Positions 1 to 45,742 of a DNA stretch of 47,909 nt are shown here, in pieces. The position numbers were made by a program, and so were the translations under genes. The stretch comes from a virus (lineage: Duplodnaviria; Heunggongvirae; Uroviricota; Caudoviricetes): positions 1-47,909 of IMG/VR virus record IMGVR_UViG_2718218171_000003; one strand, written 5' to 3'. Numbering within the stretch: position 1 is the first letter of the stretch; each line of letters opens with the position of its first letter. The notes beneath the pieces were generated by a model. It worked only from the letters and a program-made list of their open reading frames with translations, was not told the origin of the DNA and did not search any database.

Positions 1-405
1 ATGGATCAGGTTGTTGTTTTTCAAAAGATGTTTGAGCAAGTGAGAAAAGAGCAAAACTTCTCCTGGTTTTATTCAGAATTAAAACATCACCGCATTGCAC
101 ATTACATTTATTATCTGGCTACGGATAATATCAGAATTATTACTCACGATGACACGGTTTTGTTATTAAGAGGAACCAGGAACCTGTTAAAAGTTAGTAC
201 GACCAAGAACCCTGCTAAAATAAAAGAGGCCGCATTGCTTCATATTTGCGGAAAATCAACATTTCGGGAATACTGTTCAACACTGGCAGGCGCGGGCGTT
301 TTCCGGTGGGTTACTGATGTTAATCATAACAAACGCAGTTACTACGCCATTGATAATACGCTTTTATATATTGAAGATGTAGAAAACAATAAACCATTAA
401 TCTAG
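1..405 (+). CDS. ycgX: YcgX-like (DUF1398-type) host protein
   Basis: Complete 134-aa ORF starting at window base 1; length and position next to iraM and the icd-site prophage junction match the E. coli ycgX locus as I recall it; not searched. Confidence 0.55.
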   Translation: MDQVVVFQKMFEQVRKEQNFSWFYSELKHHRIAHYIYYLATDNIRIITHDDTVLLLRGTRNLLKVSTTKNPAKIKEAALLHICGKSTFREYCSTLAGAGVFRWVTDVNHNKRSYYAIDNTLLYIEDVENNKPLI

Positions 406-611
406 CTAAAGTTGGAAGCTTAAGAAATGCTTCATAATTCAGTAAGACATTAGCATAATGGAAATAAAAGTGCAGAGACTATCCCTATGGATGATAAATA
501 CTGTCTTTTTATTGCCACTCATAAATAATCACCAGGCCAATACTATCAAATTGATATTTGAAATGTGATTACTTGACTTTCTATACGTTATTTTATAACG
601 GTTAGCAAATT

Positions 612-660
612 TATAAAACCAACGGGCGTGCCATACGCCCGTTTCAATACTTAACGCACA
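612..660. repeat. Second copy of the icd-terminator hairpin plus about 20 bp of flank
   Basis: About 50 bp nearly identical to 1480-1525; stem AACGGGCG / CGCCCGTT; on the minus strand followed by GGTTTTATAAATTTG. Confidence 0.6.
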
Positions 661-1107
661 TGTGTTTTGGTTTAGTCATCATCCGGTTATATGTATTTTA
701 GCCAGGAATGGGTTAAACCATTCCTATATAACTAAAAAATTGAAACCTTATTCTCATGTCATGCTTATATTCGTCATTATCGTTATATAAAAAGGCCAAC
801 CATAATGTTTAGCAAATTGGCACAAAGTAGTATAAAGGCTATGTTTTAATTACAGGATGTTCAGTCATTTGAATGTATAACATTTTAGCTAAACAAATCT
901 AAAACGAAGTGAATAATCTAATATTTTCACTAAATCTCATTTTGTTTGATATCTATTGAGATTTCTTGCTTTAAATTTTGTTTTATATAAACAATGGTTT
1001 TAATTTTTGATTAATTTGTTTTTTGGGGAGTAATATACACATATGCAAAGTCAAGAAATAAACATCCTAATGAACCATATTAAATACCGTGGGATAAGAC
1101 ATAACAA

Positions 1108-1431
1108 ATGAAGTGGATAGTAATTGACACGGTAATTCAACCTACATGCGGTATATCTTTTTCAGCCATATGGGGTGATATGAAAATGATCATCTGGTAT
1201 CAACCTACTATATTTCTCACTCCTGGAAGTATATTTACACCGGTTAAGTCTGGTATTATCTTTAAGGATAAAGAATACCCTATTACTATTTATAACATCA
1301 CACCATTCAACAAGGATTTATGGAGTTTACTCAAAAGCAGTCAAGAGTGTCCTCCAGGAGAAAGCGAAATAACAAATAAATGTTTACATAATAGTTGTAT
1401 TATAAAAATATGCCCATATGGACTCAAGTAA
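1108..1431 (+). CDS. iraM: Anti-adaptor protein IraM (RssB inhibitor)
   Basis: 107-aa [26 protein letters not shown]...CPYGLK matching the recalled IraM/YcgW sequence and length; lies next to the e14-type attachment locus as in K-12. Confidence 0.7.
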
Positions 1432-1479
1432 TGGTCTTCATATAAATATTCTCGACATGATATTAATAATATCCACATA

Positions 1480-1512
1480 AATAAAACAACGGGCGTGTTA
1501 TACGCCCGTTTC
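1480..1512 (-). terminator. Rho-independent terminator of the displaced icd 3' end (also downstream of iraM on the plus strand)
   Basis: Minus strand: AACGGGCGTATAACACGCCCGTT hairpin followed by GTTTTATTT, starting about 25 nt after the icd stop codon. Confidence 0.6.
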
Positions 1513-1533
1513 AATATTTAACACATGTAGAGA

Positions 1534-1693
1534 TTACATGTTCTTGATGATCGCATCACCAAACTCGCTACATTTCAGCAATTTAGCGCCTTCCATCAGA
1601 CGTTCGAAGTCATAGGTTACGGTCTTGGCGTTGATTGCGCCTTCCATACCTTTAACAATCAGGTCTGCGGCTTCAGTCCAGCCCATATGGCGT
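1534..1693 (-). pseudogene. icdC: Displaced 3'-terminal fragment of isocitrate dehydrogenase gene (icdC-like)
   Basis: Minus-strand translation reads [52 protein letters not shown]-stop, the Icd C-terminus; no icd coding sequence upstream; AT-rich DNA begins at about 1694. Confidence 0.85.
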
Positions 1694-2197
1694 AACAGTA
1701 TATAAAAACAATAAGTTCAAGTCATTGATATTTAATGATAAAAATTATTTTATTGTCTTTTTATTAGCCAAAATCAACTTTATTCAACCGTTTGATTTCA
1801 TTGACGTTCGTTTTTATTTTGGGGAAAGGTTTTATCTACCATTTATATCAAAATTACAAGTCTACATTTTATTAACATCTCAATACATGTGAGGCCTTGC
1901 AGACCTTTGTGAGACCTTATGTGTCTCAGTTTTGTCCCATCTTTTATTACGACTTGCATAGCCAATGAAGATAAACGTGACGACAAACGGCGCAGCAATC
2001 TTCCTTTCTTTCACACTTTCCCAACCCAGCATGTATACTTTTCTGCCATAACTAAAGTGAATGCCTGTTATGAGCAACAAACAGGCATTAGCGCCGCTAG
2101 CATATTAGCTACCATTCGACTGCCATACTTAAGATTGATTTCTTAAGTATAACCCGGTTTCTAATACTACTTATATATTCAGCTCTGAGATTCATTT

Positions 2198-5100
2198 TTA
2201 TCTCGTAAAGCTAGTTTTATGACTTCCTGTTAGCTGACTGTCTTCATAATAAAATGCTCCACTAAACTCCTGTCGACCATAATGATGACTTGATGTGAGT
2301 GAGCCCCCTATAACGCCCTTTTCACCTAATAATGTCCAAACGATTTCAAAACCATTGTCCCTTAACATTGTTAAAAATGGTTCTTTTTTAACAAGTAGAT
2401 GCGGCTTTGAAGCATATACAGCTTCAGCTGCAAAGCAAACCATAGTTCCATTTTCATCATTGAAGCTACCCTCTACTTCCCCACTTTTTAATCCCATCTT
2501 TTCAAAGATTAAGTTACTAGGCTTCAAAAAATTCAAAGTTTCTATTTTTGATTTGTCGAACTCCTCTTCCCACAAATAATTAATCGAAGTGACACTAACA
2601 TCAGCAATCTTAGCTCCAGACTCCCGGTCTGTTACCGAAGTCCAGTCAGATCCACCATAATAATCTGATTTAAAAGACTTAAATGCTTCGGACCAATAGT
2701 ACTCCCTATTAAATAATTGGTATCTATCAGTACATTCCGGCATCCACCTGCCCATAAAGTCTTGAGCTATTGCCCAATATCTAAAATTTTCAAATTCTTC
2801 AACTTTAACGATATAACTTCTGATCTGATACCAAACCTCTTTTCGTGGGTGCCCCCAATCATCGTTTCCAATAATTTTTGGTTCTTTCCATGATGGATAA
2901 CTTTCTAATACTATCCATTCATCACCATTATCATCTTTAACTTCAATAAAAGCATATGAATTAGTTATAGTAGTAGAACTTTTAACCCAGTCTTCATTAG
3001 AGCAAGTCCAATCAAACACTTCATCATTAAGCCACCACATTTCTTTATTGCTTATTTTTTTCGTTCCAGTTTCTTTAAGTAAGATAGTGGGATCTATATC
3101 TCTTACGTAAGGCTCCCATGGCCCTTGGTATGGATTTTCCTTTCGTTCGTCACCATAACCTTCAAAACGAGTAAAATTATCGGCTAGCCTTGCCATGTAT
3201 TCATAATAAGCAATCCATTGGTATTTTTTACCAATCCGTTCTTGGAATGCCTCTCTACGTCCACGTCCAGTTCCTATTTGTTGGTCAAAATTACCATGCT
3301 TCTCCGGATCCCAACCAAGCTCTATAACACGATTGAATATAAATTGTTGAGCTAGTCGAAGATCAAAGTGTTTATCAGTTTCCAGCAGATTATTATTATG
3401 ATCCAGGTATGGCTCTATTTCATTTTCAAACTCACTTAACAGATCGTATGACAATGAATTCTTAAATAATTTCTTGCTCGCCTTTATTTCTTCCTGTGCT
3501 TTTCTACCGACCACACGACCAAATTTAATTCCTTCGCATTTATCATCATAAATGAAAGGATCTGTGGCATCATACAAATCTTTTTGTTGATCAGTTAGTT
3601 TACATTTGAAAGTTTTAAAAACTTGCTTACGGTCAACAGGGGTTTCATTAAACTTGCAACCAGACCAATCAGAATGATTATAATTTGTACCAATAGTATA
3701 TCGTGAAAAGTCACCACCTTCCATAATCGAGCTCCAGAGTTCCCGATAAGGTTCTTTATCATAAAGGGACTCTAGTTCCTCTTTTGAAGGAATCTTGTCA
3801 GGCCAAATGCTGTTGTAGGGTGGTCTAGTCTTGGATAATTCAATGCTTTCAAGTTCCAATCCAAGATGATTAGCAAATTCAATAATCTCTCTAGCATAAT
3901 CTCTAAGTAATATATTTGGATACACATACTCAGAACAAAATACCTTTTGGTAAACAGTTTCGGCTAAATATTTTAGTTCTTTAATATTATCAGTTCGCAA
4001 TGTACAGCCTAATGCAACTGCAAATATTCTTTCCCAAACGTAAGGATCATTTACACCATAAAACTTATCAATTATTTTTCTCAATACAGGAATTCTTGGC
4101 TCGAGTAAACTCACTAAAGCCTTGGTTGAGCAATCTCGAAGTTCTCGGTTACTAGAAGTTAAAAACCAGCATAAACTAGTTGCAACTAGCTCGATTGACT
4201 CATCCGAAACAAAGCTTTTATCTGTTCTGGCCCATGCCCAATCGATTAGATGCCTAAAAGCTGAGTCTTCACTATATTTATATTTAAGTTCTGTAGTCCA
4301 AAACGAATCTCGATTTGCCAAAGAATAATCTTTTAGCCAATCATGCAAGAAATTAGCATTAAAGGGATGGTCAACTAAACCTGAAATAGAGATCACTGCC
4401 TCGAGGAAATGATCAAAACTATCTTTAAATTTAAAAACATGTTCATTGATGAAAGGTCTAATTTTTTCGAAATCAATAGCCTTAATATCTCGCCATATCA
4501 AGCTATCAATAAAGGCTTCTAGTAATTTAAGATTATTGCTAAACTCCGGCAGAAATTCATAAAGCTCTTTTTCATACCTTTCTGGCAATTGAATAGACAG
4601 CGCCTCTACTATTCCCGATTTTATATAAAAATCACATTCATCATGAAAATATTTTTTCAGACGACCATCAGGCTTAAATTCACTTTCGATATTTTCAACA
4701 TCATTTAATAAAAAATTAACAGTTAAATGATCATCAAACCTTTCAAAAGCCACATAAACTACTTCCTCAGTAGAATTATCATCATTTCTCACTATGCCTT
4801 TAGTCAATAATCCTTCGTCAATCAAGGCGCTGAGGAAGGTTTTATCAGCAACATAATCATTAACTACAGATTGAACCACTGAGTGAGCATCTTTAAGTGA
4901 AATACTATTACGACCAATCTCTAATTTGAATTTTATGATTTCATTGAGAGCATCTTTAACAAGAGGAAAACTGGGATCGAATGCATATTTTCTTGGCGAT
5001 GCTAATGATTTATTTACCCCTTCCACTAAAAAGTTAAAAATATTTGAAATCCCATTAAATCCAACAGGCACTTTGGTTAAACCATTTTTCTTAATGCCTT

Positions 5101-6652
5101 CACACAATAACTTAAGAAATAGAGGGTTTTTAAACTCTGGATTAAGGTTAGGTGATGAAGGCCTCTCTATATTGTAATAATCATAAAATAGACTAACCGC
5201 TTCCAACTCAACGCTCTGAAATCCAATATGTTCATGAATTTCAAAATTATTTCGCTCAACATTCTCATGTGAAATTGTTACATTTCTATATGTTGTTCTG
5301 ACTGACATTATCAGACCAAGCCATTCAAAGCCTCTGATTTCATCGACAAAACTGTTAATATTGTCATTCCAGAATTTATTTCCATTACCTTCATTAATAG
5401 CATCAATAAAAACTAAGACTCTTTTTCCTGTTTTTTTGCCATATAAATTCAGTTTTTCTAGGAATTCACGAGAAGTGATTTTAAGCTGTAATCTCTTGAA
5501 GATTTGTGACCATGGAGATTCATCTGAAGTAAGTTGTTGCCCTAGTATGAGTAGAGAAGGATACCCAGAAGCAATTCGATTTTTAATCACATCAGCCAGT
5601 AAATGAGACTTACCAATTCCAGCTTTTCCTTCGAGAAGTAAGAATGGGTTGTTAGCCAACTTCACTGTTGTTGAATTAATGAATGTACGTAATTCATTGC
5701 ACGCATAGTCAAGTTCCCGAAGCATTCGCAGAGTAGATGAATACTTATCACTGTAATGCTTGGTTTCACCTACTTGTTCTGATTTTTCTCGGAGTTCCCA
5801 CAATATTGATTCCGCTCCGCCAATAGCTGTCTGGCAACTAGAAACATAGTTATTAAATTTATTTATAGGGATTTCATCTAATTTAGAAAAATTAATTTCT
5901 TGATATATATCAGAAATTTCTTTTAAGGACTGGTCTATTTCAGATAATTGTGAGGAAATTACATCGCAACTATGTAATTTCTTTCCAGTGACCAGAAAAC
6001 TATCTATATGCGAATAAAATATTTTAGAAAAATTATTAGTTCTACCGAGACCATCAAATATCTCTGCTATTTCTAGCTTTACGTTGAGTTCGGGTGTGTA
6101 TCGGCCTCCCAAGTCAGCTATTGCTTGACTACTTTTCTCATTTAACCAATCATCACTCAAGTGAAAAGTTAGTTTCTCATCTATAGACCGCAAAACAAGT
6201 TTAATTTGAATAAGCTCTTCATTAATATCGAATATTTTTTCTTTATAAGTTTCTTCGATATGTAGCTTTTTTAACTTCGAACAATTATTTATTTTTAACG
6301 ACAACATCCCATAAAAAAGGCTGAGTTGTTGTTGAGTTGGGGGAGTGACGCTTGGATATTCTTTGAACTTGTCTAATAACATCTCTTTGTCAGGGAACTC
6401 TTTAAAAAGGATGTGCTCATTCAACATCTCAAACAATGGTTTAGAATGATAAAATGGAATTGCTCCACTTTCTACTGGATATGTTTCTTCAAACTCAATT
6501 GCCGTCTCTTCAATTAGTTGATATAATCTATCCACATATTTTTCTGTGGGGAATAATGCTTTCTTAATCCAACTATATCCTTCTTGAGAAATGAATTGAT
6601 CAATAAGTTTAGTTGCTACATAAGTTGCCACTGTAATTGATATGGGTTCCAT
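2198..6652 (-). CDS. NACHT/STAND-type P-loop NTPase (NLR-like), 1484 aa; candidate antiphage defence protein
   Basis: Uninterrupted 4455-nt ORF; Walker A GKAGIGKS (aa 342-349, codons 5606-5629), Walker B-like VLVFIDAINE (aa 412-421), sensor-1-like LIMSVRTT (aa 447-454), NPLFLKLL helix; N-terminal about 330 aa and C-terminal about 900 aa without assignable motifs; strongly AT-rich unlike neighbouring phage genes; RBS GGAAGA 8 nt upstream of ATG. Confidence 0.7.
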   Translation of the reverse strand: MEPISITVATYVATKLIDQFISQEGYSWIKKALFPTEKYVDRLYQLIEETAIEFEETYPVESGAIPFYHSKPLFEMLNEHILFKEFPDKEMLLDKFKEYPSVTPPTQQQLSLFYGMLSLKINNCSKLKKLHIEETYKEKIFDINEELIQIKLVLRSIDEKLTFHLSDDWLNEKSSQAIADLGGRYTPELNVKLEIAEIFDGLGRTNNFSKIFYSHIDSFLVTGKKLHSCDVISSQLSEIDQSLKEISDIYQEINFSKLDEIPINKFNNYVSSCQTAIGGAESILWELREKSEQVGETKHYSDKYSSTLRMLRELDYACNELRTFINSTTVKLANNPFLLLEGKAGIGKSHLLADVIKNRIASGYPSLLILGQQLTSDESPWSQIFKRLQLKITSREFLEKLNLYGKKTGKRVLVFIDAINEGNGNKFWNDNINSFVDEIRGFEWLGLIMSVRTTYRNVTISHENVERNNFEIHEHIGFQSVELEAVSLFYDYYNIERPSSPNLNPEFKNPLFLKLLCEGIKKNGLTKVPVGFNGISNIFNFLVEGVNKSLASPRKYAFDPSFPLVKDALNEIIKFKLEIGRNSISLKDAHSVVQSVVNDYVADKTFLSALIDEGLLTKGIVRNDDNSTEEVVYVAFERFDDHLTVNFLLNDVENIESEFKPDGRLKKYFHDECDFYIKSGIVEALSIQLPERYEKELYEFLPEFSNNLKLLEAFIDSLIWRDIKAIDFEKIRPFINEHVFKFKDSFDHFLEAVISISGLVDHPFNANFLHDWLKDYSLANRDSFWTTELKYKYSEDSAFRHLIDWAWARTDKSFVSDESIELVATSLCWFLTSSNRELRDCSTKALVSLLEPRIPVLRKIIDKFYGVNDPYVWERIFAVALGCTLRTDNIKELKYLAETVYQKVFCSEYVYPNILLRDYAREIIEFANHLGLELESIELSKTRPPYNSIWPDKIPSKEELESLYDKEPYRELWSSIMEGGDFSRYTIGTNYNHSDWSGCKFNETPVDRKQVFKTFKCKLTDQQKDLYDATDPFIYDDKCEGIKFGRVVGRKAQEEIKASKKLFKNSLSYDLLSEFENEIEPYLDHNNNLLETDKHFDLRLAQQFIFNRVIELGWDPEKHGNFDQQIGTGRGRREAFQERIGKKYQWIAYYEYMARLADNFTRFEGYGDERKENPYQGPWEPYVRDIDPTILLKETGTKKISNKEMWWLNDEVFDWTCSNEDWVKSSTTITNSYAFIEVKDDNGDEWIVLESYPSWKEPKIIGNDDWGHPRKEVWYQIRSYIVKVEEFENFRYWAIAQDFMGRWMPECTDRYQLFNREYYWSEAFKSFKSDYYGGSDWTSVTDRESGAKIADVSVTSINYLWEEEFDKSKIETLNFLKPSNLIFEKMGLKSGEVEGSFNDENGTMVCFAAEAVYASKPHLLVKKEPFLTMLRDNGFEIVWTLLGEKGVIGGSLTSSHHYGRQEFSGAFYYEDSQLTGSHKTSFTR

Positions 6653-6731
6653 GATTAGCTTCTTCCAACAATTAAATTTTTTACCAAGCGTTTATGCTTT
6701 CCAATAATTATTACATCTCACCGTAAAACAT

Positions 6732-6759
6732 ATTTATATGGTTTTAAACCTATCTGTAA
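6732..6759 (-). promoter_or_regulatory. Candidate sigma70 promoter for the NTPase gene
   Basis: Minus strand -35 TTTACA (6759-6754), 16-nt spacer, -10 TATAAA (6737-6732), about 75 nt upstream of the ATG at 6652. Confidence 0.3.
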
Positions 6760-7183
6760 ATCTTGACACCTTGGCAAGAACCTAATCCTACATTTTAATA
6801 TCAATCTATATAATATCGCCAGCGTCATAATAATCGGGCTTGTCATAGTTAAGTATTCGCCTCCGATATCCCAATGAGATAAGTAAGTCATAAGTGTTAT
6901 AAATGAAAAGGTTACATTTTTCAAAGAGTTATTATGATGGAATATTATTCAAAACGCAATGTGGCTGAAACGAGTCTGAATCTAACATCCGCTCCTAGCA
7001 CATAGCAGCCATAGAGACAGTGGCGTAAAATCATGGAGGATCGGTGGGAGAAGGTGCAAATCCTCCCATACAAAAAATACGTAAAAACGGTAACGGCTGG
7101 AAATCATTCAATACTCGCACTATCGAAAGTTAACCAGCCAGCCGCAGTATCCTATCATGACAAGTTACTGCGGCTTTTTATAT

Positions 7184-7471
7184 TTAACGGATCAACAGCC
7201 AGACCAGCAGACACACCACCACTGGCACAGCAAAATCCATCAGGCTTGCCACATCCCATGCACGAGGATCAAAACCGCCCCACCACGGCATGTTAATCCG
7301 CTTGCCATGCCCGAACATTTCAATCCAGCGATATTCTGCCTGGGTATGTTCACGAGCGATGAAGAACGTACAACCAGCTATCGCTCCGTAAGCCCAGTTC
7401 CCGGTAAAAAGACCAATCAGTAACTGCGCAGCCACAGCACAAAGCGCATGAAGGAAAGGTGTTATATCCAT
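7184..7471 (-). CDS. Small integral membrane protein (about 95 aa), function unknown
   Basis: Hydrophobic segments ALCAVAAQLLIGLF and FAVPVVVCLLVWLLI; ATG at 7471 with GGTAGGA RBS (track ORF extends to a TTG at 7486). Confidence 0.5.
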   Translation of the reverse strand: MDITPFLHALCAVAAQLLIGLFTGNWAYGAIAGCTFFIAREHTQAEYRWIEMFGHGKRINMPWWGGFDPRAWDVASLMDFAVPVVVCLLVWLLIR

Positions 7472-7486
7472 TTTCATCCTACCCAA

Positions 7487-7507
7487 TAAAACGGGGCGCT
7501 CGGCCCC
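7487..7507 (-). terminator. Rho-independent terminator after the tail-fibre gene
   Basis: Minus strand GGGGCCGAGCGCCCC hairpin followed by GTTTTATTGGG. Confidence 0.5.
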
Positions 7508-7513
7508 TTAATA

Positions 7514-8554
7514 TTATTTAGACGCAAGCGCCGCCTCAATTGCAGATAATCTTTGTCTTAATTCTGCGTTTTCTTCTTCCAGTGCTGTTATCCTGTCGTC
7601 TGACTCTCTGGCTACCTGAACAAGCAAACCTGTTACGCCTGAGTAATCAACGGTATAGTATCTTTCTCCCTCTTCTCCATCAGACCCATTGTCCCCGCTC
7701 TTGTACTTTATTGTGCTACCAACTGATTCAGGGATTGCATTAAGTGCCTCTTGCGCAATAACGCCAGCATAAGGCATACCATTAGACTTGAGACGGTATG
7801 TATATCCATTCATTAATCTGATGCGTTCAGTGGCATTGTCAATAACCTGAATATTTTCTTTAAGATCTCTGTCCGACACCTGGTCGAATGATGTTGCCTT
7901 GCATGGCCCGTTTATCTCAAGCTGATAGGTTTTATCTGGGTTCCTTTGTGCATAAAACAAAAAAAGCCCGCCATCATCCCTAATTTCATAAACAACTGGA
8001 CGACTGGAGTTTCCCCATAATAACGTCGATACACCAGAATACGCCGTACCTTGCGTGTTTAGTGTCATGGTCGAACCATGATTAGCGTATTTGATTTGTA
8101 ATGTGTCTGTGTAATCAAATTTAATAAGCGCGTTACTTCCCCGCACACCATACGACATGAGACAGTTCCCCATCTTGAGGTAACCATCACTGCCTGGAAA
8201 AATTAATGTTCCGCCGTAAAGATTACTAAAGTCCCACCAAATACCCTTTTCGCCATCTTTTACGTGTAGTCGCGCCATTGCAGCTTCATCGCCTGCAACA
8301 TTTTTTCGGGTATAAAACTCAGTATATACATCGATTTTATCGGCAGTCTTATGAATTGAACGATGTTTACCACCAAAGACAGTACCAGTTGTCGGCAAAG
8401 TACTATCTTTTTTGGTAGCATCCCAATCACCTAACACCTCGCGTTTACCATCAACATAGGATTTTGTTGCGTAGCTTCCAAGATCAGTTTTTAATTTGCT
8501 AACATCGGATTTTAGCGTTTTGATGTCATCAGGAATTACTGTCGATGTAGCCAT
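7514..8554 (-). CDS. Tail fibre-like protein with C-terminal intramolecular chaperone (peptidase S74-type) domain
   Basis: 346-aa ORF; motif SDRDLKENIQVIDNATERIRLMNGYTYRLK followed by GVIAQEALNAIPE and a terminal coiled coil ITALEEENAELRQRL, typical of self-cleaving chaperone domains of phage fibres. Confidence 0.7.
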   Translation of the reverse strand: MATSTVIPDDIKTLKSDVSKLKTDLGSYATKSYVDGKREVLGDWDATKKDSTLPTTGTVFGGKHRSIHKTADKIDVYTEFYTRKNVAGDEAAMARLHVKDGEKGIWWDFSNLYGGTLIFPGSDGYLKMGNCLMSYGVRGSNALIKFDYTDTLQIKYANHGSTMTLNTQGTAYSGVSTLLWGNSSRPVVYEIRDDGGLFLFYAQRNPDKTYQLEINGPCKATSFDQVSDRDLKENIQVIDNATERIRLMNGYTYRLKSNGMPYAGVIAQEALNAIPESVGSTIKYKSGDNGSDGEEGERYYTVDYSGVTGLLVQVARESDDRITALEEENAELRQRLSAIEAALASK

Positions 8555-8563
8555 TTTTCTTCC

Positions 8564-8845
8564 TCACATCCAGCCACGAAGTTGATGCTCAACAGCAACC
8601 GCGTATTCATCGAATAATGACGATATTTGCGAATCATTAATGATGCGCACGTTTACAAAATATCCGTCTTCCTTAACACATACCGGTTCGCCATCTTCAG
8701 TCAGTTCTCCGGTTTCTTTGTACACGTCACCTATCACGTCAATGAGAATATCATCCTGCATCGACTCGTCATCATAATAGCCAGTGCTATCCATAAAGGC
8801 CGAAAATTCGGCCCTGTCTTCAAATTTGAGTGTTAAATCTTTCAT
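8564..8845 (-). CDS. Acidic 93-aa protein, translationally coupled to stf (TAATG overlap), unknown function
   Basis: ORF start overlaps the stf stop codon by 1 nt; Asp/Glu-rich; no recognisable motif. Confidence 0.5.
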   Translation of the reverse strand: MKDLTLKFEDRAEFSAFMDSTGYYDDESMQDDILIDVIGDVYKETGELTEDGEPVCVKEDGYFVNVRIINDSQISSLFDEYAVAVEHQLRGWM

Positions 8846-11220
8846 TAGATTGACTCCCCCACCTGAGCATCAGTCAATGCCTTGTGCCATATTCTGAAAT
8901 TCCTGACATGACCAAATAAATGACGTAACCCGGCTGTAGTCTGGCCTCCAATACGGATAATTGCGGTGTTCTGAATACAGGACCATGTGGTTTTTGTTTC
9001 GCTGGATATATGCCCGTTACTTACTGAGCACGTAGACTGCTCTGACTTTACACGCATCCCCATAACCATTTTTTCAAGCGATGCGTTTTCGTTTACCCGT
9101 CTGTTAGCTCCTCCAATATCGCAATAAGGAAATCCGTCGTAATCTGTTGAACGACCGAAGCCAAGAATAATAGCCGCTCCGGTTTGATGACCGCCGGTAT
9201 CAAAAACACGTGGCGCTGCATTTGGCGTTTTATACCAGTTCTTATGTACCTCACAAAGAACCGTAAAAGGAAGATTATAAAGATTATTCTTAATTGGAAC
9301 TGTAACTATATCGCTTGCGCGGGTCGCCGCCGTCGCTCCTGATATAATAAAAGATGATACACAAGGCCCATCTTCTACTTGTGGGGTGGCCAGATAAATA
9401 TAGTCACCAGATACGGTTGCCCCGCTCTGCTTAGGAGAATACTGTATCTGAGAGCCTATTTTTAACTCCCCATCAATTGCCTGAATTGTTGCCTCTGCAA
9501 AAATCCATCCGGTAGCTTCGTCCTTTCTGACTCTCGCTGTAATCCTTGAGGCAGCACCGCCTGTCATATTAATTTCAAGCGTTTGTGTATCAATATACGC
9601 ATCACCAAGAAAAGTTGTTGCGCTACCGTCATATTTATCAAACCGGATACGCAACCTTACCTGCAGTTCTGTTTTAAAACGACATGAGGTTGTCACGTGT
9701 TTATTATCGCCTGAGACATCAACTGACTTTGTTGCAGCAATTGACGCCATATTAATGGCTGAGGTTTGCCCAATCAGAGAATCGTTGCAGACAAACTTTC
9801 CATAGGTAAAACCAAAATTATCCGTCCCTGTTTCGGGCACATCCATATTTGACGATCGCCCCCAACTGGCAGGGCTTTCCGAATTGAGCATGTAGTTTGT
9901 TCTTTGCCCCTCAATAAGCAGGCCATCACGTTCAAATCGTGGCTCGTCAATGGCAGCCTCTGTCAGCACACCAGATTTGTTAATATAGGTTGCTTTCGAT
10001 GCACGTTTAAACTTAACAATCTTGTCGCCAGGCATCGTTATTTCATCGTCACCAATAACAATTTTTTTATATGATGGCGAAAAGCCCGTAATCATATCCA
10101 GCGAATCGTTAAATGGTATCCACACATCAGGCAGCGGCTGTAAGACATATTTATACGGCTCCGCAGCCTGGCTTGCGTACTCTCTGGCTGCATCTTCGCT
10201 TGCTTTAGCTGCCGTCTGGCTTGCTGCCGATGCTTTCGCTGAGTTCGCAGCCGCTGTTTCGCTCACCTTTGCGTTGGTTTCACTGGTTTTTGCTGCTTTT
10301 TGACTGTTAGCTGATGCAGTGGCAGAAGCAGCCGCCGCGCTTGCAGAACTGGCTGCGGCACTCTCGCTTTGGGCCGCTGCATCCTGACTGCTTTTCGCCG
10401 CAGTTTCACTGGCTTTGGCATTCGTTTCGCTGGTCTTCGCTGCCGTCTGGCTGGACTTTGCGTTAGTTTCACTCGTCTTCGCAGCTTTCTGGCTGTTAGC
10501 CGCAGCAGTTGCTGATCCAGCTGCTGAAGTCGCAGAACCGGCTGCCGCGCTCTCGCTTTGGGCTGCTGCAACCTGGCTGTTTTTTGCCGCAGTTTCACTG
10601 GCTTTGGCATTCGTTTCGCTGGTTTTCGCTGCCGTCTGGCTGGACTTTGCGTTGGTTTCGCTCGTCTTTGCGGCTGTCTCGCTATTTTTCGCGTTGGTTT
10701 CTGATTTTTTGGCTGCTGTCGCGGAGTTTTCTGATGCAGTCTGTGAGGTCGCTGCCGTCTGTGCACTATTAGCTGCATTCGTTTCTGAGGTTTTCGCCGC
10801 GTTCTTCGATGATGCCGCTGCAGTTTCGGATTTCTTTGCCGCCGCTGCGCTCTGAGAGGCGGCTTCGGCGTTGCGTGCCACTTCTTCCACCATTGCCTCA
10901 AAACGACGCAATGCCTCCGGCATGACATCATCTTCCGTCATGGCACCGAGAAAATCATTCAGCGTACCTGGTCTGGAGCCTTCATAGACGGTAATGGTCC
11001 CGGCATGTGAAGGCGGAAAACCTTCAACCAGCAGGATGACGCTGTACTGGCCATGCTCAACATCCATGCTGTAACGCCCGGCTTCATCCGGATTTTCAGA
11101 GGCCACCGTGTTCACCAGTACCGTGGTGCTGTTACGCTTTGCCTTCAGTTGAATAGTGCAGTTCTGTATTGGTTTTCCCGCACCATCTTTCAGCACACCT
11201 GAGATTTTTACTGCTGCCAT
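8845..11220 (-). CDS. stf: Side tail fibre protein (Stf-like), 791 aa, lambda-like N-terminus with a repetitive shaft and a distinct C-terminal domain
   Basis: N-terminus MAVKISGVLKDG...GFPPSHAGTITVYE matches lambda Stf; ATG at 11220 with GGAG RBS; Ala/Ser/Thr/Lys-rich repeats; C-terminus ends GHVRNFRIWHKALTDAQVGE (lectin/LamG-like signature, inferred). Confidence 0.85.
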   Translation of the reverse strand: MAAVKISGVLKDGAGKPIQNCTIQLKAKRNSTTVLVNTVASENPDEAGRYSMDVEHGQYSVILLVEGFPPSHAGTITVYEGSRPGTLNDFLGAMTEDDVMPEALRRFEAMVEEVARNAEAASQSAAAAKKSETAAASSKNAAKTSETNAANSAQTAATSQTASENSATAAKKSETNAKNSETAAKTSETNAKSSQTAAKTSETNAKASETAAKNSQVAAAQSESAAAGSATSAAGSATAAANSQKAAKTSETNAKSSQTAAKTSETNAKASETAAKSSQDAAAQSESAAASSASAAAASATASANSQKAAKTSETNAKVSETAAANSAKASAASQTAAKASEDAAREYASQAAEPYKYVLQPLPDVWIPFNDSLDMITGFSPSYKKIVIGDDEITMPGDKIVKFKRASKATYINKSGVLTEAAIDEPRFERDGLLIEGQRTNYMLNSESPASWGRSSNMDVPETGTDNFGFTYGKFVCNDSLIGQTSAINMASIAATKSVDVSGDNKHVTTSCRFKTELQVRLRIRFDKYDGSATTFLGDAYIDTQTLEINMTGGAASRITARVRKDEATGWIFAEATIQAIDGELKIGSQIQYSPKQSGATVSGDYIYLATPQVEDGPCVSSFIISGATAATRASDIVTVPIKNNLYNLPFTVLCEVHKNWYKTPNAAPRVFDTGGHQTGAAIILGFGRSTDYDGFPYCDIGGANRRVNENASLEKMVMGMRVKSEQSTCSVSNGHISSETKTTWSCIQNTAIIRIGGQTTAGLRHLFGHVRNFRIWHKALTDAQVGESI
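10180..10668. repeat. In-frame tandem repeats inside stf (unit about 189 bp = 63 aa, two full copies plus a partial third)
   Basis: Protein repeats KTSETNAKSSQTAAKTSETNAKASETAAK...ANSQKAA at aa 187-249 and 250-312; near-identical DNA segments about 189 nt apart. Confidence 0.7.
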
Positions 11221-26492: not shown

Positions 26493-30173
<3,681 letters not shown>

Positions 30174-30199
<26 letters not shown>

Positions 30200-35373: not shown

Positions 35374-35572
35374 GCTTCACCTCCGCAGAGGTCAAACGCA
35401 GGATGCAAAAAATCGCAGGTGCATTTCTGCATCTGTGAAGGGAGAAGAGAGTTTGGATTGTATGTGCGCATAAACGTCCCCGTTTAGCGCAGAAGTCACC
35501 GGAGTTGTTCAGGCTCCGATGACGTGATTATGGCGTGTTGATTATGGGAAATCAAAGTAGATAGTCAAAAAA

Positions 35573-36091
35573 TTACCACAAGTGGCCCTTCGTTTGGAAG
35601 AGTAACATCTGTAAAAGGCCGTTTGCTGCCTTGAAATTCTCATATTGGTCGGTGAAGTGAAATTTCCATTTTTCACCATGGAATAAGTTGTTTCTAAGGC
35701 AGTGCAAAACCTTTAAGCAAAGACTCAACATCTGTTTTTCATCAGGCTTCGGGTTTTCCATCAATTCAATCATTCGAGACTTGGTATCACTCCGAGCGTA
35801 ATCATTTGGAAATAGTACATGAAATCGGTGATTGACCCTTCCTGATTCCAAATATCGTTTAGTATAGTAACTATACACTTTTCTTACTAAATCCTGATCG
35901 ATACTCCCTGAAGTCAAAAGCCAATCGGCAACATTGCCTGTTTTTGCAACACTTGTCCCTTTGTGCGACCATTTACTTTCCCCGAATGCAAATAACAACG
36001 TGAAAAGGTAAATATTATCCCATTCTTCACGCTTTAGATCTCTTCCGCCATCGGTCAAACTTATCAAAACTTCTTCAAATTTTTGTTGCAT
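35573..36091 (-). CDS. HEPN-motif protein (R-N-x3-H near C-terminus); putative RNase-type toxin or abortive-infection moron
   Basis: 172 aa from ATG at 36091 with GAGG RBS; motif LHCLRNNLFHGEKW; AT-rich coding sequence. Confidence 0.45.
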   Translation of the reverse strand: MQQKFEEVLISLTDGGRDLKREEWDNIYLFTLLFAFGESKWSHKGTSVAKTGNVADWLLTSGSIDQDLVRKVYSYYTKRYLESGRVNHRFHVLFPNDYARSDTKSRMIELMENPKPDEKQMLSLCLKVLHCLRNNLFHGEKWKFHFTDQYENFKAANGLLQMLLFQTKGHLW

Positions 36092-36449
36092 GCCCACCTC
36101 AGTTACCCATTAATCTTTGATGATCTGGTTTGCCATTTCCGTATATTGAGAATCACTGGAATGAGGCAATTTCAAACTCTCCCCCCGATAGTGCCGCAAC
36201 CGTTCAAGGAAGTAATTACGCAGTTGCTCGGACTGCTAACGTATCACCACCTCGGCACCAGCATGTTCAGCCGCTTTTTGTACGCTACTCCGTAAGCTGC
36301 AAAGTATAGGTATACATTAACCTTGTGTCATTCTTCCTGCGACTCTGCTGCAACGATTCCAGCAGTTATTGCTGCCCATGCCTATGTCATCAAGTTATCC
36401 CACTCTCGAAACCGCATAATACTAAAAAAACACACGCATTCTGTTTGTC

Positions 36450-36875
36450 TTATTTTTTGCCAATGCGGAACGTAGTTGTATTTTTGCCTTCATTGCGTTG
36501 CAATATGTTAAATTTATTTAAGAGTTTAATCATGCCCGAATTTTTGTTGACTACCACAAACTCAATCAATGGAATTTTACCAAGCAATAGATTCATCACG
36601 TTAAACCCTATCGATTTCCCTTGCATTCTGGGGGCCAAATGTATTTCATGTAAAAAAATGTACACTTCGCGTGGAAAATCAAAACCTAGATTTTTATACT
36701 CAACCTCAACAAACCCAACAATATTTCCATTACTTTTGATAAAATAGACATTATCAATACTCGACAATGAGTATATTTTTGAACTCCACTTGTAATTTTG
36801 CCGATAAGAATTCACAGCATTTATTTTCTGAACATCAGGTAGATTACAATGTGAAAAAGGAACAATGCTTGCCAT
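36450..36875 (-). CDS. GNAT-family N-acetyltransferase
   Basis: 141-aa ORF with acetyl-CoA binding motif HEIHLAPRMQGKSIGFNVMNLLL; AT-rich. Confidence 0.7.
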   Translation of the reverse strand: MASIVPFSHCNLPDVQKINAVNSYRQNYKWSSKIYSLSSIDNVYFIKSNGNIVGFVEVEYKNLGFDFPREVYIFLHEIHLAPRMQGKSIGFNVMNLLLGKIPLIEFVVVNKNSGMIKLLNKFNILQRNEGKNTTTFRIGKK

Positions 36876-36877
36876 TT

Positions 36878-37054
36878 TTACCCTACCATTAAAGAACTTA
36901 CAATGAGTTCATCCGGACCTATAACAATCAGAAAAATCATAACATTTAAGAATAAATTGACGAATAACAAATTAATAGTTCTATTAAATTTGCTACTGCA
37001 AGATGGCATATCACGAACCTGATTGACCAGGTCGCTAATTTCATGATCTTTCAT
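36878..37054 (-). CDS. 58-aa peptide with C-terminal hydrophobic segment, 2 nt upstream of the GNAT gene
   Basis: Translated by hand: MKDHEISDLVNQVRDMPSCSSKFNRTINLLFVNLFLNVMIFLIVIGPDELIVSSLMVG; GAGG RBS; a possible 24-codon ORF with AGGAG RBS precedes it; below the ORF-track cutoff. Confidence 0.35.
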   Translation of the reverse strand: MKDHEISDLVNQVRDMPSCSSKFNRTINLLFVNLFLNVMIFLIVIGPDELIVSSLMVG

Positions 37055-37250
37055 GACTTACCTCTGTGGTGTATGGCGGCGCGGCAGGAGTTCCATCCGT
37101 AAATGAATGAGTTCAATGGTGACATGACTACGCTCCTTTTAATAAGTAAGTCATATGCCTAGCATGCAGTCATTTTATGTGGCACTACCAGCACTGGCTT
37201 CGCACTAAACGTGGAAATTGCCTCATTAATAACCTTCACAGCATCAGCCA

Positions 37251-44681: not shown

Positions 44682-45742
44682 GTCAGGTTGGTAATCATTC
44701 ATTCGAATTTCCGGCATCGCAAGGTGTACAGGGTGGTACTGTTACACTCTTCCTTACCATACCAGGAAGATCGCTGGCTCGTTTCCTCGCTTCAGATAAT
44801 TACGGCCATACACTGTAACGCTCTCAGCGAGAAATTAATCCAAATCGAGTACGAAAATTTTTAAATTATCTCACTAACGCAGACTCAAGAAATGAGCCTT
44901 TTATCATTCCCCCTCTCGTAGGTAACTGTGATTCGAATATAGAATTTGTACCGTTTGGCAACACAAATGTTGGTATAGCCAGAATTCCCCTCGACGCCGA
45001 AATAAAACTTTTTGATGGTCAACATCGTGCAGCTGGCATTGAGATATATTGCCGAAGTTCCCCATCAACGCTCATGGTTCCCATGATGCTTACAATGAAT
45101 CTGCCGCTAAAAACCAGGCAGCAGTTCTTTTCGGACATAAATAACAACGTTTCTAAGCCATCAGCGACCATCAATATGGCGTATAACGGCCGGGATGATA
45201 TTGCTCAGGGAATGATATCCTTCCTGACCCAACATACTGTATTTGCCGATATAACCGATTTTGAACACAACGTAGTGCCATTAAAAAGTAATATGTGGGT
45301 GAGTTTCAAGGCACTCACTGATGCAACGTCAAAGTTCGCTAGGAACGGCAATCAACAACTTGAAATGGGATATATAGAATCTGTCTGGGAGGCATGGATT
45401 ACACTAACTCAGATTGACTCAATCCGACATGGTGTACACCACGCTACGTACAAGCGCGATTATATTCAGTTCCATGGAGTAATGATTAACGCTTTCGGTT
45501 TTGCGGTTCAACAGATGATGGTTAATCATTCCATCGCAGAAATAACTTCTATGATCGAAAAACTATGTGCAACTACCAGCTCTGCAGAAAGAGAGGATTT
45601 TTTTCTGATGGATAACTGGGCGGGGATCTGCACGAAAGCCAGCCAGGAAAAACTATCTGTTATTGCCAATGTGGCAGCGCAGAAAGCAGCAGCAAACAGA
45701 CTGATACAAGCTTTTACCAAAGGAAGTCTGGAATCAACTTAA
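44678..45742 (+). pseudogene. DndB-like DGQHR-domain gene interrupted by an in-frame TAA (at 44816-44818)
   Basis: One frame reads ATG 44678 ... FPASQGVQGG ... TAA ... LFDGQHRAAGIEIYC ... to stop at 45742; no ATG/GTG/TTG between the TAA and the ATG at 45074, so the DGQHR segment has no start codon. Confidence 0.6.

Follow-up and report, generated by a model that had tools for sequence, protein, structure and literature searches.

An anti-phage avs2 gene as probable swappable cargo of an icd-integrated lambda-like prophage

The window (the whole stretch of DNA analysed, 47,909 nucleotides of IMG/VR record IMGVR_UViG_2718218171_000003) carries a lambda-like prophage integrated at icd, and the features at its left end are collected in Table 1. 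An earlier note had described the interval 1694-7183, here called the island, as AT-rich cargo holding an NTPase gene and otherwise only low-confidence short ORFs, and the gene content agrees with this. There is a single long ORF, and the short ORFs at 1843-1998, 1880-2080, 6718-6924 and 6982-7107 have no Pfam or PHROGs matches and were therefore treated as non-coding. RefSeq likewise annotates avs2 as the only gene in the equivalent interval of strain N3, where the counterpart of the icd fragment is annotated as an incomplete isocitrate dehydrogenase (icdC in K-12). Scanned against Rfam at E ≤ 1, positions 1-9000 gave no match within the island; a sub-threshold tpke11 match lies outside it, at 1460-1529.

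Table 1. Features at the icd-proximal end of the prophage (window coordinates)
Feature	Position	Strand	Basis or remark
Displaced icd 3' fragment, last 50 codons	1534..1686	-	ORF translation equals the Icd C-terminus; attachment-site junction beside iraM and ycgX
att-proximal prophage end, specific to icd-integrating phages	1687..1879	.	Common to icd-site prophages L005-L008
Left linker, non-coding	1880..2075	.	Common to avs2 cassettes elsewhere and to sitABCD-type icd phages
avs2, 1484 aa	2198..6652	-	NCBIfam, PADLOC and PDB 9O4E_A alignments
N-terminal effector domain, residues 1-175, helical	6128..6652	-	
Walker A GKAGIGKS, residues 342-349 including K348	5606..5629	-	
AT-rich upstream region, travels with avs2	6653..6987	-	Inside the 1880-7145 cassette, ~98% identity elsewhere
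Candidate promoter of the earlier note	6733..6760	-	TTTACA, 16 nt, TATAAA, read directly
Right linker, edge of different cargoes	6988..7146	.	~70-bp core at 7072-7149
Hairpin (GCCGCAGTA...TACTGCGGC) followed by TTTTT	7141..7174	+	Sequence and fold; directly past the stop codon of the 100-aa ORF
Small membrane protein, 100 aa	7184..7486	-	phrog_1443, E = 9e-58

The product of the long ORF scored 1695 bits against the NCBIfam equivalog NF041813 (residues 178-1476; cut-off 1000 bits) and 1762 bits against the PADLOC Avs2 model PDLC02164 (residues 22-1483), while PDB chain 9O4E_A aligned with residues 1-1484 end to end at 3369 bits. It is collinear with this solved EcAvs2 chain and has the three-part Avs2 architecture of effector, STAND ATPase and C-terminal TPR plus sensor, with a Walker B motif (VLVFIDA) at residue 412 and weak STAND/NACHT/NB-ARC Pfam matches at 324-427. 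Judged by these alignments, the gene is avs2, encoding an AVAST type 2 STAND NTPase, and represents a close allele of EcAvs2. The earlier designation as an NTPase gene was thus correct but incomplete, as the STAND protein Avs2 already has a name, an anti-phage role and a solved structure. The gene is already known: it is annotated by RefSeq and the structure of the protein has been published, EcAvs2 having been solved by cryo-EM with a phage terminase (PDB 9O4E; Evans et al., Nat Commun 2026, PMC13601566).

Length (1484 aa), domain order and the uncommon non-nuclease N-terminal effector are shared with EcAvs2. When compared with EcAvs2-type alleles, defined by identity to the 9O4E chain over the first 100 residues, 31-33 of the 1484 residues differ, 13 of them within effector residues 1-175, and the present allele further differs in its context, an icd-site lambda-like prophage. 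Conservation extends to all 10 residues that have been probed experimentally: the Walker A lysine K348, whose replacement by alanine abolishes EcAvs2 defence, and D981, T1128, R1130, R1132, W1266, E1362, E1364, E1444 and E1462, which contact the terminase or the bridging ATP (PMC13601566). KpAvs2 of Klebsiella pneumoniae belongs to the same Avs2 sensor family and is a terminase-activated system that acts by abortive infection (Bechon et al. 2024, PMC11564622). It has a Mrr-type nuclease effector and two associated genes and also senses Ksap1 and Ksap2 (PMC11564622), whereas the avs2 gene described here stands alone and encodes an uncharacterised helical effector. The first 15 residues of EcAvs2 resemble amyloid signalling motifs, on which nothing further is noted (PMC13601566). 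A comparison of the first 34 Avs2 residues with peptides from all frames of the window identified no partner sharing such a motif (best E = 4.6), and the description of a two-component amyloid-signalling NLR does not fit, there being neither a motif-matched neighbour nor another credible gene in the island.

The AT-richness that had been reported for the island is pronounced, with a GC content of 34.5% against 51.5% in the remaining prophage (7184-47909), where the lowest window of the same size (5.49 kb) reaches 45.8%. The avs2 gene itself has a GC content of 34.3% and a GC3 of 26%, compared with a GC3 of 62-68% in the J and TerL genes of the prophage. The composition plot, in which a missing discontinuity would have spoken against foreign cargo, therefore revealed a strong one, and the base composition of the slot is unlike that of the surrounding phage genome, as is looked for in a moron or variable cargo slot. 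The proposed bounds fared less evenly. The icd 3' fragment does lie on the left and tail-fibre genes, which begin at 7514, on the right, but the left chromosomal flank (1-1533, ycgX and iraM) is as AT-rich as the island at 32.4% GC, so the contrast on this side consists only of the 153-bp icd fragment (47% GC). On the right, the GC step falls at ~6950-7000 instead of 7183: 100-bp windows across 6653-6987 have 27-36% GC and rise only in the final ~40 bp, and those across the right linker have 41-49% GC. The 100-aa ORF beyond the linker (50.8% GC, hydrophobic at both ends) is kept after the tail-fibre genes in three compared loci (L005, L013 and L015); it is phage backbone rather than cargo and forms the true right border.

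The low GC content of the flank raises the idea that the AT-rich stretch simply continues the chromosomal ycgX-iraM neighbourhood and is not phage-borne. We reject this and consider its probability negligible, because the icd fragment separates flank from island, iraM directly adjoins an intact icd in prophage-free genomes, and the same cassette recurs at unrelated loci, where it is always located beside tail-fibre or pin genes.

Comparative genomics also bears out the earlier suggestion that the island occupies a variable cargo position of lambdoid prophages. The equivalent position holds different cargo in other icd-site prophages and in phages whose structural genes are ~96% identical: pinE-mcrA in the K-12 element e14, mcrC with an AAA ATPase, a 252-256-aa gene with sitABCD, or a pin-type recombinase with ynaE and dinI. 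The cargo thus differs among related phages while the flanking homology is conserved, and the segment is not conserved backbone of this phage family. The e14 slot occupies the same site (icd/icdC-iraM), also holds a defence gene and, like the lambda b region, separates the attachment junction from tail-fibre or pin genes. However, e14 is a different, defective element that has only window positions 1-1700 in common with this prophage and is without both linkers, and it carries a type IV restriction enzyme, not a STAND sensor. Closer in layout are the sitABCD lambda-like phages at icd (Lambda_2E9 and prophages of 118UI and DE17). They use the same attachment site, and the two linkers, the 100-aa ORF and a tail-fibre gene follow one another as they do in the window; the integrase of Lambda_2E9 is 380 aa, the length of the integrase in the window. 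In these phages the 252-256-aa gene takes the place of avs2, and sitABCD is added after the right linker and ahead of the 100-aa ORF, such that the free phage Lambda_2E9 reads int, attP with the icd 3' end, left linker, 256-aa gene, right linker, sitABCD, 100-aa ORF and tail fibre.

Copies of the avs2 cassette itself (1880-7145) with ~98% identity lie at the ends of further lambdoid prophages; the cassette was found in 86 of 5426 complete E. coli genomes, with identical borders in thrW, yagP/pao and CP4-6-type contexts. Its occurrence in an icd-site lambda-like prophage is confined to one of these 5426 genomes, that of strain N3. No avs2 was detected among 50,697 phage records, so its transfer inside virions is not documented. 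The segment 1687-1879 is absent from avs2 cassettes at other sites, all of which begin at 1880, while homology with the icd-site prophages of Table 1 extends to 1952-2075. The two homology sets therefore overlap within the left linker, making this a candidate recombination joint on sequence grounds. Sequence related to the left linker is present in 4080 of the 5426 genomes and adjoins attP in free lambda-like phages; the linker was also sought in the yagU-paoA intergenic region but was not found there in the locus examined (L010). The right linker, which is not cargo, has an 87% match in sit-type icd prophages, where it separates the 252-aa gene from sitA, and a 79% match next to McrBC-like cargo. 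Its core is a repeat that is present in 5386 of the 5426 genomes, including copies in the ecpE-ykgJ intergenic region and at an O157 prophage cargo edge. Homology between avs2 cassettes stops at 7145-7147, within the hairpin that follows.

All copies outside icd share the sharp left border at 1880, and truncated integrase genes adjoin this border in the ETEC and S1-IND-02-A genomes, as might be expected if the island were an integrative element of its own, or what is left of a second element inserted in tandem, instead of cargo of the lambda-like phage. We consider this improbable, since the island has no integrase, transposase or terminal repeats and, relative to the icd duplication, is on the prophage side, and since free lambda-like phages package both linkers, which lie between attP and the tail fibres in their genomes. 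Swapping of int/att modules explains the sharp border at 1880 equally well. The integrase fragments beside the cassette in two other genomes leave room for another route of movement.

A promoter (TTTACA, 16 nt, TATAAA) had been proposed upstream of avs2, along with independent expression in the lysogen. The motif is present as described, with its hexamers at 6760-6755 and 6738-6733, but its quality does not rise above chance: it is without the conserved T at -7 and ties with a second 10/12 sigma-70 match at 6924-6896, and the region contains 22 promoter-like sites against 23.5 ± 5.3 in shuffled sequences, which is no excess. Hairpins are located downstream of the avs2 stop codon. As horizontally acquired DNA that is silenced in E. 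coli typically has a GC content as low as this (34.5%), avs2 might be carried but silent or non-functional, owing to AT-rich silencing or allele substitutions, and the island would then have no current role. The outcome of the promoter scans and the 13 effector-domain substitutions relative to the tested allele are compatible with this. Nevertheless, we regard a silent avs2 as unlikely, if slightly less so than a separate element: the 1484-codon frame is intact despite AT-rich DNA in which stop codons arise easily, every probed functional residue is conserved, synonymous differences between avs2 alleles are about as common as non-synonymous ones, and the same effector variant recurs in N3, ETEC strain 2014EL-1346-6 and I4. 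EcAvs2 cloned with its native promoter conferred defence (PMC13601566, Methods), which makes independent expression of avs2 in the lysogen plausible by analogy, and 6653-6987 presumably holds the avs2 promoter.

Collectively, these data make it highly probable that the interval is a swappable accessory slot of an icd-integrated lambda-like prophage whose present cargo is the anti-phage gene avs2. The slot, which separates the attachment site from the tail-fibre module, would correspond to the lambda b region, and avs2, as its sole cargo gene, would constitute a one-protein anti-phage system from which the lysogen may benefit. Terminase-triggered oligomerisation, toxicity and phage defence have been established for EcAvs2 (PMC13601566). 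By analogy, the C-terminal TPR and beta-rich sensor would bind the large terminase of an invading phage at its ATPase domain, aided by a bridging ATP; the STAND ATPase would then drive tetramerisation and so unite four N-terminal effector domains, and the infected cell would die ahead of completion of the phage cycle. Cargo would most likely pass between prophages by homologous recombination at the two linkers. As a prophage accessory slot with a defence gene, this is a textbook example that adds little beyond confirming the first reading. It does yield a map of the slot at base resolution, running from the att module through the left linker, the cargo and the right linker, then an optional second cargo, to the 100-aa ORF and the tail fibres; this map explains the mutual replacement of Avs2, McrA, McrBC-like pair and SitABCD cargoes.

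The prophage with avs2 encodes its own large terminase at 28274-30199, of the lambda gpA type. Other avs2 prophages do likewise: that of strain Bongo has a lambda-type terminase with only 4 residue differences, and that of strain S1-IND-02-A has a different, 700-aa gpA-family terminase. A resident terminase might be expected to be detected by a terminase sensor, and this counts against the cargo interpretation favoured above. We tentatively suggest, as a possibility that falls short of an even chance, that a large-terminase sensor is borne by apparently intact lambdoid prophages with gpA-family terminases of their own through escape, separation or lock-in. Either gpA-type terminases escape EcAvs2, so that the weapon spares the phage's own kind, or avs2 expression and activity are kept apart from late-gene expression, or avs2 prevents the prophage from inducing productively and so fixes it in place. 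The response of EcAvs2 to the lambda terminase was sought in the main text of PMC13601566, which does not mention lambda. It has been argued in a preprint that the terminase-sensing Avs3 is missing from phage hotspots due to the risk of self-targeting. That a terminase sensor coexists with intact terminase genes of the lambda type raises a self/non-self question about prophage-borne Avs proteins that can be tested directly; if the suggestion holds, Avs2 in this prophage would be a natural test case for the self-targeting argument.

The first 1700 nt of the window are E. coli chromosomal DNA, and the sequence beyond is a lambda-like prophage whose structural half shares approximately 96% identity with isolated phages, 2G7b and PhiR63_1 among them, whose tail fibres feature Peptidase_S74 chaperone and phage_tail_N domains, and whose lambda-type integrase gene terminates exactly at the final base of the window. 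The chromosomal genes ycgX and iraM and the icd 3′ fragment also mark where e14 has its right end in K-12; in genomes lacking a prophage at this site, an intact icd directly adjoins iraM.

Sliding-window GC content, together with GC3 of individual genes, revealed a compositional discontinuity, which confirmed the AT-rich island proposed in the earlier note: the interval 1694-7183 has a GC content of 34.5% versus 51.5% in the remaining prophage, where no 5.49-kb window falls below 45.8%, and the long ORF has a GC3 of 26%, whereas the J and terminase genes reach 62-68%. The predicted content of one NTPase gene plus short ORFs was also borne out, as none of the other ORFs had a match in Pfam or PHROGs and avs2 is the sole RefSeq annotation in the equivalent interval of strain N3. 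The proposed borders held only in part. The icd 3′ fragment does lie on the left, but the chromosomal flank (1-1533, 32.4% GC) is as AT-rich as the island, and on the right the GC content rises near 6950-7000 rather than at 7183. On that side, the cargo is bordered by a conserved linker, beyond which lies a backbone gene.

Elsewhere in the prophage, the early/nin region features a second AT-rich patch (37% GC) that is probably another moron; its three ORFs had no match in PADLOC. A DndB/DGQHR-type ORF, with the recombination genes on one side and the integrase gene on the other, aligns only to the C-terminal two-thirds of phrog_7901 (positions 133-353 of 355); either the ORF is truncated or its start was mis-called.

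Features of the window, with coordinates and strands
Feature	Coordinates	Strand	Description
ycgX	1-405		chromosomal flank
iraM	1108-1431		chromosomal flank
icd	1534-1686	minus	final 50 codons
Left linker	1880-2075		
avs2	2198-6652	minus	long ORF, 1484 aa
Avs2 effector domain	6128-6652	minus	residues 1-175
Right linker	6988-7146		
~70-bp core	7072-7149		
Hairpin and T-run	7141-7187	plus	antisense to avs2
Backbone gene	7184-7486		100-aa membrane protein, phrog_1443
Large terminase	28274-30199	minus	lambda gpA type
AT-rich patch	35570-37060		ORFs of 174 aa (phrog_27260), 141 aa (weak GNAT match) and 58 aa; function unassigned
DndB/DGQHR-type ORF	45074-45742	plus	222 aa

The product of the long ORF scored 1695 bits against the NCBIfam equivalog model for Avs2 (cut-off 1000), an AVAST type 2 STAND NTPase, and up to 1762 bits against PADLOC Avs2 models, while Pfam alone gave only sub-threshold STAND, NACHT and NB-ARC matches around the P-loop. 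A PDB sequence search returned one chain, 9O4E_A (1484 aa; residues 1-1484 aligned, 3369 bits), which is E. coli Avs2 (EcAvs2) bound to the PhiV-1 terminase (PMC13601566). The Walker A lysine (K348) is kept, as are all nine sensor or bridging-ATP residues probed or highlighted in EcAvs2 (D981, T1128, R1130, R1132, W1266, E1362, E1364, E1444 and E1462). The defence gene carried as cargo is thus already known and annotated, its product has a solved structure, and the type of location is familiar as well.

The window allele differs from those of the S1-IND-02-A and Bongo prophages, which match the 9O4E chain across the first 100 residues, at 33 and 31 positions, respectively (~97.8% identity). 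These differences cluster in the effector domain and helical extension, with 13 of the 31-33 in residues 1-175 and 21 of the 33 from S1-IND-02-A in residues 1-330. Of the two effector variants, the window allele shares 'YSWIKKALFPTEK' with N3, ETEC strain 2014EL-1346-6 and I4, and 'YGCIKKALFPQKR' is that of S1-IND-02-A, Bongo and the PDB allele.

By analogy with the near-identical EcAvs2, the window protein would act as described in the literature (PMC13601566). EcAvs2 protects against T7-like, T1-like and Dhillonvirus phages; the large terminase was its sole activator in proteome-wide screens of PhiV-1 and ZL19, the terminase ATPase domain suffices, and Ksap1 of Pal009 is an additional activator. 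On binding terminase, EcAvs2 assembles into a flat C4 tetramer whose interface holds a third, bridging ATP, and K348A abolishes defence. The N-terminal effector, unseen in the cryo-EM map, is not a nuclease and is regarded by those authors as uncharacterised and probably non-enzymatic; they note a resemblance to amyloid signalling motifs in the first 15 residues. The idea of a two-gene amyloid relay gained no support here, as no neighbouring ORF had a motif matching the Avs2 N-terminus. Partial homologues (46-71% identity) carry names including Photobacterium, Vibrio, Salinivibrio and Bacteroidota, which hints at a low-GC donor lineage.

Comparison with other icd-site prophages supported the assignment of the island as a variable cargo slot rather than conserved backbone. 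This position is occupied by pinE-mcrA in K-12 e14, by mcrC and an AAA ATPase in MB7671, and by a 252-256-aa gene plus sitABCD in 118UI, DE17 and AVS0578; among 5426 complete genomes, only N3 carries avs2 there. In PhiR63_1, whose tail-fibre module is the same as that of the window, the cargo is instead a pin-type recombinase together with ynaE and dinI. The gene order of the free phage Lambda_2E9 (int, attP and the icd 3′ end that the phage itself carries there, left linker, 256-aa gene, right linker, sitABCD, 100-aa ORF, tail fibre) places the slot within the packaged genome. The cassette itself (1880-7145) recurs at ~98% identity with both ends identical: in S1-IND-02-A (prophage at thrW), in Bongo (apparently complete lambda-like prophage adjoining yagP/paoD), and in CP4-6-type remnants of ETEC O6:H16 strain 2014EL-1346-6 and I4. 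At least 80% of the query was present in 86 of the 5426 genomes.

Phages of the sitABCD-carrying type at icd share homology with the window at 1-2075, 6988-7146 and 7193-7480, and avs2 cassettes elsewhere from 1880 to 7145/7147, so the two linkers are common to elements with differing cargo. From these alignments we infer that cargo may be swapped by homologous recombination at the linkers. The McrBC-like cargo has a copy of 7052-7147 (79% identity) at its right edge. The ~70-bp core occurs in 5386 of 5426 E. coli genomes (median two copies, maximum nine), including the core-genome ecpE-ykgJ intergenic region and the edge of a DUF1076 gene cluster in an O157 lambdoid prophage, and could be a recombination linker or a phage-gene remnant; PGAP labels the O157 copy a 'capsid protein' fragment. 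Immediately past the 100-aa ORF's stop codon lie a strong hairpin and a T-run. The window has no plus-strand gene that ends there. In sit-type relatives, the plus-strand sitD terminates just ahead of this ORF.

The candidate promoter of the earlier note fared less well. Its hexamers (6760-6755 and 6738-6733, minus strand) and 16-nt spacing are present. This 10/12 consensus match lacks the T at -7 and is equalled by a second one at 6924-6896, and such sites are no commoner in the region than in shuffled sequence. EcAvs2 cloned "with native promoter" was active (PMC13601566), so by analogy the promoter is probably within the AT-rich 6653-6987, which travels with the gene.

Past its start codon, the resident terminase appears to match lambda A over the first 120 residues. 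The Bongo prophage has the same terminase with four differences and S1-IND-02-A a different one; all three apparently intact avs2-bearing lambdoid prophages retain a full-length gpA-family large terminase (Bongo, L016:21537-23462; S1-IND-02-A, L017:10449-12551), a member of the protein class sensed by Avs2. No avs2 was present in 50,697 phage genomes, many of which hold both linkers with other cargo. A preprint on phage hotspots found terminase-sensing Avs3 missing there and suggested autoimmunity as the reason. The Klebsiella pneumoniae relative KpAvs2 was assayed against lambda vir (PMC11564622); for EcAvs2, the main text of PMC13601566 makes no mention of lambda. The co-residence of Avs2 with a gpA-type terminase is the only aspect of this locus with real potential for novelty.
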